Shown: in pieces, positions 24,391 to 25,701 of the stretch
Layout: the number at the start of each line of letters is the position of its first letter
Position numbering within the stretch: position 1 is the stretch's first letter
Origin: Pseudomonas phage HHBS47_1
Length of the DNA stretch: 64,000 nucleotides
Direction: 5' to 3' (one strand)
Sequence record: PQ287649.1
Program-made: the position numbers and the translations under genes
The notes under the pieces: generated by a model
Told to the model about the DNA's origin: nothing
What the model saw: only the letters and a program-made list of their open reading frames with translations
The model's database searches: none

Positions 24391-24412
24391 GTAATCAGGT
24401 CTGTATTACTTG
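24391..24412 (+). promoter_or_regulatory. GTAATCAGGTCTGTATTACTT palindromic element (GTAAT-N9-ATTAC) with TGTATTAC core
   Basis: near-identical to the element at 25680; about 45 nt upstream of ATG 24458. Confidence 0.5.
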
Positions 24413-24457
24413 GGTGTTTAAGTACGCAACATTCATTCCTTTTTGGAGGTTTACGCC

Positions 24458-24937
24458 ATGGCTAAACAATCGAACTTCACCATCGCCAACTACAACGCCG
24501 TCCTGGAAGCTGTTAAAGCCAACAACGGTTATGTGGTCGACGTTCACAACAATCGTCGCACTCCGTACCGTGCGGCTGGCATCGCTGCTCTGGTGAAGGG
24601 CGAAAGGGTTACCCCGGTGCTGCTGTGCCATGGTTCCTACTTCTGCCTGAACTCGCTGCACAAGGAAGCCGATGGTTCGGTGACCCTCTCCAGCTGGTCG
24701 GTCGGTGTTACCATCTTCACCCACCAACACGGTGGGCTGGAAGAAGCGATCCAAGCCTACAACAAGGAGCAATCCGAGTGGGCGTTGTCGGGTGGTCAAC
24801 TGATGCATGTACGCATCTTCGACTACACCGACGAAACCGCACCTGTGTTCGGCGAGCCAGTTGATCTGGCAGGCGAAGTCGTGGGTGCGCTGGCAGCACA
24901 AGAGCCGATCGCCAAGGTCGACATCCCTGCTCAATAA
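24458..24937 (+). CDS. hypothetical protein; GC-rich, codon-biased
   Basis: GGAGG RBS 8 nt upstream; strong C/G third-position bias. Confidence 0.65.
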   Translation: MAKQSNFTIANYNAVLEAVKANNGYVVDVHNNRRTPYRAAGIAALVKGERVTPVLLCHGSYFCLNSLHKEADGSVTLSSWSVGVTIFTHQHGGLEEAIQAYNKEQSEWALSGGQLMHVRIFDYTDETAPVFGEPVDLAGEVVGALAAQEPIAKVDIPAQ

Positions 24938-24982
24938 CGAGCAGTTTTCTGTACGTAATCTGACTTCATTAGGAGCAATGCC

Positions 24983-25390
24983 ATGAGTAATGTAATGCAC
25001 GTTAGCACCATCGCCGGTCGTACCGCCCTGACGGTGATCACACCCGACGACCTGCCGGTTACCAACTGGATGGAAAATGTGCTTGCTGCACAGATCCAGA
25101 AAGTGGTTGACGAAGGTAAGGGTTGGCCCAACGACGCCGAGTTCAAGGTGGAGGTTACCTACCACACTTGGCCACAGGGTTGGGACCGGGAAGTGTACAC
25201 GCACTTCTTTACCAACCGCGCCGAGCTGGACTCCTACATCAAGGACCAGCACGAGTGGGCCCGTTGTGAGGACAACATGGTGAAGATCAAGATCTACAAC
25301 TGGGACCTCGGTCCGAACTTCATGGAAACTCGTGAGTTCGGTGGTCCTGAGTTGTGGAACAGCCCTCTGAGCCGTCCTTACTTGACGTAA
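24983..25390 (+). CDS. hypothetical protein; GC-rich, codon-biased
   Basis: AGGAG RBS; followed by a strong terminator. Confidence 0.65.
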   Translation: MSNVMHVSTIAGRTALTVITPDDLPVTNWMENVLAAQIQKVVDEGKGWPNDAEFKVEVTYHTWPQGWDREVYTHFFTNRAELDSYIKDQHEWARCEDNMVKIKIYNWDLGPNFMETREFGGPELWNSPLSRPYLT

Positions 25391-25398
25391 GGCTAGCG

Positions 25399-25446
25399 CT
25401 ACCTCCCTGCCACTGGCAGGGAGGTAGTACTCCTTTTATTTTTTGC
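25399..25446 (+). terminator. intrinsic terminator (ctacctccctgcc / ggcagggaggtag) plus T-run
   Basis: 13-bp stem, loop actg, then tccttttattttttg. Confidence 0.8.
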
Positions 25447-25679
25447 TTCATTTCCATTTTTATAGTTCACTCAACACAACGAGCAAAGTAATGCCTGACA
25501 CTAACAACGGTCCTGTGGAAATAAAGATGGAACGTGTGCAGTTCAAAAGAATAAAAGTAAGGGGTCTTCGTAAATTCTGGTTACTCATCAAACGCTTACT
25601 GAGTAAGGACACCGATTATAAGAACACTTGACGAACGCATGGCTAAGTCAATGGAACTAAGGGTAATTAACTTCTAGTT

Positions 25680-25701
25680 GTAATCAGGTCTATATTACCT
25701 T
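25680..25701 (+). promoter_or_regulatory. GTAATCAGGTCTATATTACCT palindromic element with TATATTAC core
   Basis: 19 of 21 nt identical to the 24391 element; about 65 nt upstream of the RHH gene; a small 5-bp hairpin and a T-run follow it. Confidence 0.5.

Follow-up and report, generated by a model that had tools for sequence, protein, structure and literature searches.

Two repeated elements in Pseudomonas phage HHBS47_1 are probable unannotated promoters of the EL/phiKZ-type family

We identified two elements in Pseudomonas phage HHBS47_1 (PQ287649.1) which are likely to be unannotated members of the EL/phiKZ-type promoter family, read by the multisubunit RNA polymerase of the phage. The window analyzed here is a stretch of 64,000 nucleotides of this phage and is 96-97% identical to the Pseudomonas jumbo phage EL. 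A 4-kb query from it returned seven Pseudomonas phage records with 95.6-97.2% identity, all of them EL or close relatives of EL; because EL is present under two accessions, these seven records represent six distinct EL-like phages. The EL record (AJ697969/NC_007623) contains nine 19-nt features designated 'putative phage promoter', whose sequences give ATTTYAAACCTACATTATY. One of these annotated promoters (EL positions 164008-164026) corresponds to position 23877 of the window, 0.5 kb upstream of the first element. The two elements themselves carry no promoter annotation in the records examined.

The repeated elements and the EL promoter family

A sequence-only reading of the window had pointed to two 21-nt elements at 24391 and 25680 that are 19/21 identical and each contain the inverted repeat GTAAT-N9-ATTAC. 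Both positions and the sequence were confirmed: copy 1 (GTAATCAGGTCTGTATTACTT) is located at 24391-24411 and copy 2 (GTAATCAGGTCTATATTACCT) at 25680-25700, both on the + strand. The 21-mers are real and non-random. No further match with three or fewer mismatches was found in the 64-kb window, and 100 shuffles yielded none. The 21-mers are part of a longer repeated unit, a 64-nt direct repeat (24357-24420 and 25646-25709) with 78% identity and a spacing of 1289 nt; copy 1 of this repeat overlaps at its left end with the final codons of the ORF160-like gene. The two copies are more alike than other members of the family owing to their origin from a single duplicated 64-nt junction.

The same reading placed a common core, TATATTAC, at three sites. 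This core is indeed present at 8970 and 25691, but copy 1 reads TGTATTAC instead. With two exact occurrences in the window against 0.81 expected, the count of TATATTAC alone is not above chance. The substitution in copy 1 is private to HHBS47_1, as five relatives have TATATTAC at this place, and the G in copy 1 corresponds to an A in 19/19 sites used for training the matrix as well as in both EL copies of the element. The sequence of copy 2 is invariant among the six genomes compared. Both arms of the palindrome are likewise invariant in 6/6 close genomes, and the two substitutions found within the 21-mer are both in the spacer, which is not significant. The seven genomes were too alike to show whether the motif is selectively conserved relative to its flanks. 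The site upstream of the chaperonin gene (8960-8986, TTAATAAACCTATATTACTCAGGTGTAATG) is real and lies 43 nt upstream of the ATG at 9021; the TCAGGT and GTAAT pieces described for this site are located downstream of the core and do not form a permuted element.

To define the family, position weight matrices were built from the annotated EL promoters. With a narrow matrix based on the nine annotated sites only, the elements scored just 3.5 and -0.5 bits. This matrix also detected graded intermediate sites, all of them intergenic and on the + strand and several with a CTATATTACY core. The matrix was widened to 30 nt and grown iteratively from the nine seeds, with the EL equivalents of both elements kept out of the training and sites selected irrespective of gene positions. 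With the grown matrix the held-out equivalents of copy 1 and copy 2 ranked 20th and 22nd, respectively, of 422,372 positions in EL, in line with the proposal that the elements are promoter-like; their membership emerges only once the matrix is broadened beyond the nine annotated sites. The top 22 hits are without exception on the + strand, and 21 of them are intergenic, although non-coding DNA makes up only 7.6% of the genome and coding DNA 92.4%. The genome-wide scan suggested earlier as a check on the motif thus showed enrichment upstream of genes. During the iterations the matrix drifted slightly, taking in a few sites in coding DNA that carry TCCTGAC. Exact copies of TATATTAC occur six times in the whole EL genome, all on the + strand and five of them intergenic.

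The window was scanned with a 27-nt matrix built without the two elements. Eight sites were found, all on the + strand, with scores ranging from 16.5 to 36.1, and the best match outside the family scored 7.1; the score of copy 1 (16.5) does not exceed what mononucleotide shuffles can yield, as their best hits reached up to 17.8. The matrix hits in the two elements begin at 24392 and 25681. The members in the window are:

1067-1093, + strand: member without EL annotation, score 26.5
2753-2779, + strand: member equal to annotated EL promoter 142913, score 32.3
8960-8986, + strand: site of the GroEL-like chaperonin gene (TTAATAAACCTATATTACTCAGGTGTA), containing the core at 8970, score 29.1
11569-11595, + strand: member equal to annotated EL promoter 151700, score 32.9
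23877-23903, + strand: member matching the EL promoter at 164008-164026 (TTTTCAAACCTACATCATTAGGGTGAA), score 36.1
24357-24420, + strand: probable promoter region 1 (repeat copy 1), score 16.5, held-out rank 20th; ATTTAAC box at 24376-24382, core CTGTATTAC at 24401-24409, TG at 24415-24416
25646-25709, + strand: probable promoter region 2 (repeat copy 2), score 23.0, held-out rank 22nd; AATTAAC box at 25665-25671, core CTATATTAC at 25690-25698, TG at 25704-25705
40916-40942, + strand: member equal to annotated EL promoter 181063, score 32.5

The distance between motif and start codon is 48 nt for copy 1 (ATG at 24458) and 68 nt for copy 2 (ATG at 25767), and ranges from 22 to 104 nt in the family apart from one site at 320 nt. 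The elements share with the annotated EL promoters the genome lineage, the strand and an intergenic position 20-100 nt before start codons, and also the order of TTTYARR, YCTAYATTAY and a TG 6-7 nt past the core. They differ in having ATATTAC instead of ACATTAT in the core and GTAAT in place of the upstream T-run. Rather than as the suggested second promoter class, the elements are better viewed as one end of a continuous range, from CTACATTAT to CTATATTAC, within a single family.

Promoter layout and likeness to phiKZ

An alignment of 21 family members revealed four blocks: an ATTTAAC-type box, TTTYARR, the core YCTAYATTAY and a conserved G-T-G, in which the TG is found at +6/+7 after the 8-nt core. 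The ATTTAAC-type box is common to both elements and to sites 18, 95946 and 164008, and a weaker form is present at 84856 and 139694. The EL equivalent of copy 1 is identical to the EL promoter at 206521 at 23 of 23 positions across TCAAGTCTATATTACTTGGGTGA, and this promoter has the canonical ATTTC where the elements have GTAAT. Compared to the EL consensus, both elements have TAAT instead of TTTT about 20 nt upstream. The GTAAT...ATTAC symmetry is accounted for as a by-product of this layout, in which the promoter core supplies ATTAC and a variant of the T-rich upstream region supplies GTAAT.

Predicted promoter motifs have been published for EL (WTTTYAAACCTACATTATY), phiKZ (TATATTAC), 201phi2-1 (...TTTRARR_BTATATTACDWHDGTG) and OBP/N1M2 (...TTTYARRYAKATATTATYWWADTG) (PMC7058600, Table 2). 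Such motifs are early promoters of virion RNA polymerases and are centered near -10 (PMC7598289). Mapping of transcription starts has validated the early motifs in phiKZ and 201phi2-1, and the early promoters of phiKZ were mapped by primer extension, differential RNA-seq and ONT-cappable-seq. The resemblance of the core to the phiKZ early-promoter consensus, noted in the sequence-only reading, was found to be an identity with the published core (PMC7058600). In the first 50 kb of phiKZ all seven copies of TATATTAC are intergenic and on the + strand. One of these is located upstream of PHIKZ054, a gene which carries an early promoter motif according to the differential RNA-seq study. The seven phiKZ sites share the layout TTTAARNNN-TATATTAC-N5-TGA, which is colinear with that of the EL family and of the two elements. 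Copy 2 has exact TATATTAC, as does copy 1 in each of the other five EL-like phages compared, and the elements also have in common with the phiKZ promoters a TTTAAR-type region upstream, a TG(A) 6-8 nt past the core, the + strand and an intergenic position. However, phiKZ belongs to another genus without DNA similarity beyond the motif, and its sites are far more AT-rich. For 201phi2-1, OBP and N1M2 the comparison was made with the consensus strings in the literature rather than with individual genome sites. Apart from the initial two or three T's and a single degenerate base, AATCAGG-TC-TATATTAC-CTTT-GTG agrees with the 201phi2-1 string position by position, and the conservation at about -10, -20 and -30 reported for 201phi2-1 matches three blocks of the elements.

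The window encodes beta-like subunits of a phage RNA polymerase; three regions match the PHROG family 'RNA polymerase beta subunit' (53217-54659, E 5e-192; 56611-59811, E 0; 60269-61342, E 5.5e-118). Each element would form the middle of a promoter of about 50 nt for the phage's own multisubunit RNA polymerase. In this promoter an ATTTAAC-like box would be located about 30 nt upstream of the start, a TTTYARR-like region (the variant AATCAGG in the elements) about 20 nt upstream, and the AT-rich core CTAYATTAY (CTATATTAC or CTGTATTAC) would be centered about 10 nt upstream. The conserved TG 6-7 nt past the core would mark the start of transcription, and from its position we infer starts near 24416 (±3) and 25705 (±3). 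The elements are most probably early promoters, recognized by the polymerase that is packaged in the virion and enters the cell together with the DNA. Literature searches returned no EL transcriptome.

The genes and putative control signals around the two elements are:

24458-24937, + strand: ORF161-like gene, 159 aa, no known family, first gene after promoter 1
24983-25390, + strand: ORF162-like gene, 135 aa, weak paralogue of ORF161 (27% identity, E 7e-06)
25398-25444, + strand: strong intrinsic terminator at the end of unit 1, 14-bp stem with 9 G-C pairs followed by a T-run
25712-25736, + strand: hairpin AAGGCGTGGTTGCCTT followed by CCTATTTTTA, a GGC-N6-GCC palindrome just past the predicted start of unit 2
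25767-26114, + strand: Arc-family RHH gene (EL ORF163), RHH domain at residues 16-56
26116-26316, + strand: ORF164-like gene, 66 aa, second gene of unit 2
26329-26381, no strand assigned: terminator after ORF164, perfect 13-bp stem and T-run, between convergent genes

In the proposed organization promoter 1 would drive the ORF161- and ORF162-like genes as far as the terminator at 25398-25444, and promoter 2 would drive the RHH gene and ORF164 as far as the terminator at 26329-26381. The promoter at 23877 would drive the ORF159- and ORF160-like genes and probably read through into the next unit. No terminator was found between this promoter and promoter 1, and promoter 1 is therefore probably internal. 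For the hairpin at 25712-25736 two speculative roles can be proposed, as an attenuator close to the promoter or as a candidate site of the AmrZ type. AGGC-N5-6-GCCT, taken as a form of such a site, occurs three times in the window against 1.08 expected, which is not significant.

The RHH protein and alternative explanations for the elements

The gene directly downstream of copy 2 encodes an Arc/MetJ-type RHH protein, as read from the sequence before; its product matches the Pfam Arc family (PF03869) with E 1.9e-14 and 53.6 bits against a cut-off of 20.4. The closest solved relative is AmrZ of P. aeruginosa (3QOQ, E 2.7e-08), and Mnt is found with E 2.1e-05. The strand SRTADKFVLRMP of the RHH protein matches SRTADKFVVRLP of AmrZ, and the base-reading Lys, Val and Arg residues are identical. 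The corresponding AmrZ residues, Lys18, Val20 and Arg22, recognize two 5'-GGC half-sites (PMC3325190). The resemblance of EL ORF163 to AlgZ/AmrZ has been described by Krylov et al., who proposed ORF163 as a 'repressor' linked to pseudolysogeny, and vir mutants of EL exist (PMC3564109). Its literature counterpart in phiKZ, the 'repressor' ORF196, was considered and rejected, as RefSeq PHIKZ196 has neither similarity to the RHH protein nor an Arc domain. A 2026 paper reports on an RHH protein of another Pseudomonas phage, nearer to AmrZ than to Arc, that regulates host genes. Because of the AmrZ resemblance of ORF163 and this host-gene-regulating phage protein, mimicry of a host regulator is at least as plausible as autoregulation.

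The palindrome had been read as an operator for the RHH protein, suggesting autoregulation. In such a reading the site would have a dual use: the adjacent RHH protein would bind the palindrome, cover the upstream and core parts of both its own promoter and that of the ORF161/162-like genes and shut these off, and might be the 'repressor' behind EL pseudolysogeny. The location of the RHH gene directly downstream of copy 2 fits with such a role, as do the description of ORF163 as a putative repressor, the vir mutants and the invariant arms with substitutions confined to the spacer. A two-fold-symmetric element of about 20 bp over a promoter and adjoining an RHH gene also resembles the operators of Arc, Mnt and AmrZ (P22 Arc; amrZ1, GGC-AAAAC-GCC). 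In the 211-kb EL genome GTAAT-N9-ATTAC is found at exactly these two promoters, with about 0.27 expected. However, both sites are copies of one 64-nt unit and the palindrome therefore counts as one independent occurrence, and one of its arms is the promoter core. A 5-bp arm matching ATTAC within about 10 upstream positions would be expected at about one of 21 promoters, for which we estimate a probability of 0.2-0.3. The EL promoter at 206521 lacks the GTAAT arm despite its 23-nt identity with copy 1 in the core, and in the TAAT-bearing relatives at 8960 and 1067 the TAAT is one base out of register or the ATTA is missing. That both of two substitutions are outside the arms has a P of about 0.27. 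Moreover, the Lys, Val and Arg residues identical to those of AmrZ read a GGC-N5-GCC arrangement, whereas neither GGC nor GCC is present in either 21-mer and the arms, unlike the known operators, are AT-rich (GTAAT/ATTAC); the half-site sequence thus appears not to fit the base-reading residues of the RHH protein. A tblastn search of phages, IMG/VR and metagenomes for divergent relatives of the locus, in which covariation of the arms could be followed, returned only the seven near-identical EL-like genomes. This search also matched unrelated phages that have the RHH domain alone in common. We consider the dual-use reading unlikely and the operator claim unsupported. Somewhat less likely still is that ORF163 binds the palindrome and represses two promoters of the phage polymerase in a nucleus-forming jumbo phage, possibly as the pseudolysogeny/vir 'repressor' of Krylov et al.

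Other explanations for the elements are less probable again. The 64-nt repeats bracket the ORF161/162 cassette and could mainly provide the homology through which gene modules are exchanged or lost, comparable to the T4-type promoter-stem-loop cassettes. They are direct repeats at a distance of 1289 nt and flank two paralogous genes, and in GXNNE2 and GXNNA8 the segment at about 24880-25450 is swapped for a divergent allele. This allele, however, begins inside ORF161 and stops at the terminator instead of at the repeats, both copies and the cassette are kept in 6/6 genomes compared, and 78% identity across 64 nt makes a poor recombination substrate, so that a recombination function is very improbable. 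Use of copy 2 (TTAACT-18 nt-TATATT) as a sigma-70 promoter by the host RNA polymerase is slightly more improbable than that. The consensus scan gave a 9/12 match at 25667-25696, but three such matches were found in the region where 3.0 are expected in shuffles, and copy 1 matches more poorly (TTAACG ... TGTATT). The family is conserved at positions (CCTA, the TG past the core and TTTYARR) that do not fit sigma-70 hexamers, and phages of the phiKZ type do not need the host RNA polymerase for their development. Formation of a hairpin or terminator by the GTAAT/ATTAC arms, in RNA or DNA, was effectively refuted and has hardly any probability left: although a 5-bp inverted repeat is present, folding was no better than that of shuffled sequence on either strand (z from -0.84 to +0.75; copy 2 -1.7 kcal/mol), and the minimum-energy fold of copy 2 does not use the arms. 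A search of Rfam gave no match for the elements.

Significance for EL-like phages

The likely function of the two elements thus remains that of promoters for the phage's own RNA polymerase. The finding opens no new mechanism, and a repressor acting on virion-polymerase promoters is unsupported. In the EL lineage the family appears to comprise about 21 promoters, compared to nine in the GenBank record. As shown by the members of the TATATTAC type, the EL and phiKZ motifs form one continuous family. Re-annotation would be of value for defining early transcription units and for obtaining phage-specific expression parts for Pseudomonas.

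The promoter family in the window and in EL

Scanned with the matrix built from members of the EL promoter family, the window gave a best score of only 7.1 besides its eight promoters. The best score in mononucleotide shuffles of the window averaged 13.1 and reached a maximum of 17.8. Judged against such shuffles, this suggests that promoter-like sequences are depleted elsewhere in the window, or the low background score may instead be an effect of codon composition. In the Pseudomonas jumbo phage EL, ten more unannotated members of the family were found beyond the nine promoters that its record annotates and the pair of elements corresponding to copy 1 and copy 2:

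18 (18-44), 17569, 26005, 40997, 84856, 95946, 139694, 141104, 149097 and 206521, plus strand: unannotated EL family members, all intergenic

One further match, at EL 57429, is doubtful and lies in coding sequence. Within the window, an HNH endonuclease ORF (54745-56013) breaks up the run of genes for RNA polymerase beta-like subunits (53217-61345); its counterpart in the EL record, ORF185, is marked as holding a putative intron-encoded HNH endonuclease.

The predicted leader of the RHH gene and its upstream region

The following features lie between the terminator of the ORF162-like gene and the Arc-family RHH gene:

25491-25631: 46-aa ORF, inside the conserved stretch 25475-25760
25698-25711 and 25744-25757: arms of a 14-nt inverted repeat in the predicted RHH leader
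25712-25736: hairpin with a T-run in the predicted RHH leader, immediately 3' of the promoter
25712-25727: AAGGCGTGGTTGCCTT, a GGC-N6-GCC palindrome just 3' of the inferred transcription start of the RHH gene

Through the 14-nt inverted repeat, the ribosome-binding site would be base-paired to the 5' end of the leader, in a fold of -18.4 kcal/mol (z -2.6). In phage 201phi2-1, promoter-proximal termination is reported to give rise to 5'UTR-derived small RNAs (PMC11512511). The palindrome at 25712-25727 is alike in form to the GGC-N5-GCC site of AmrZ, the host protein that is the closest solved relative of the RHH protein, and it is a better candidate for the RHH operator than the 21-mer. The number of AGGC-N5-6-GCCT occurrences in the window is not statistically unusual (3 observed, 1.08 expected).

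When six EL-like genomes are compared, the intergenic stretch 25475-25760 upstream of the RHH gene has 0, 0 and 3 columns per 100 that vary, against a typical 3-12 elsewhere. Neither a family promoter, an obvious ribosome-binding site nor a Pfam or PHROG match was found for the 46-aa ORF, and the extra conservation is possibly that of a recent recombination tract.

Several annotations in public records (NC_007623.1, PV472050.1 and OP599913.1) are unusual. The RefSeq label of the RHH gene, 'partition protein ATPase', agrees with two PHROG families matched by its protein. In MIZ-Pa99, which is classed as Straboviridae in its record, opposite-strand ORFs are annotated where the RHH gene stands, and the ORF158 homologue of IR-QUMS is named 'terminase large subunit'.

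The ORF161/162 module and its probable internal promoter

The ORF161-like and ORF162-like proteins (24458-25390) match no known family and are weak paralogues of each other (27% identity over 67 aa, E 7e-06). In the EL-like phages GXNNE2 and GXNNA8 a strongly divergent allele replaces the 3' end of ORF161, the whole of ORF162 and the terminator (window 24880-25450), with near-identical flanks. This replacement is a mosaic module exchange, with the terminator as its end.

Upstream of this module, position 24403 in copy 1 is a G in the window, making CTG from CTA. The equivalent base is A in the 19 family sites used for training the matrix, in both EL element copies and in copy 1 of the five other EL-like phages compared. 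The G at 24403 predicts that the internal promoter of ORF161/162 would be weakened in this phage isolate.
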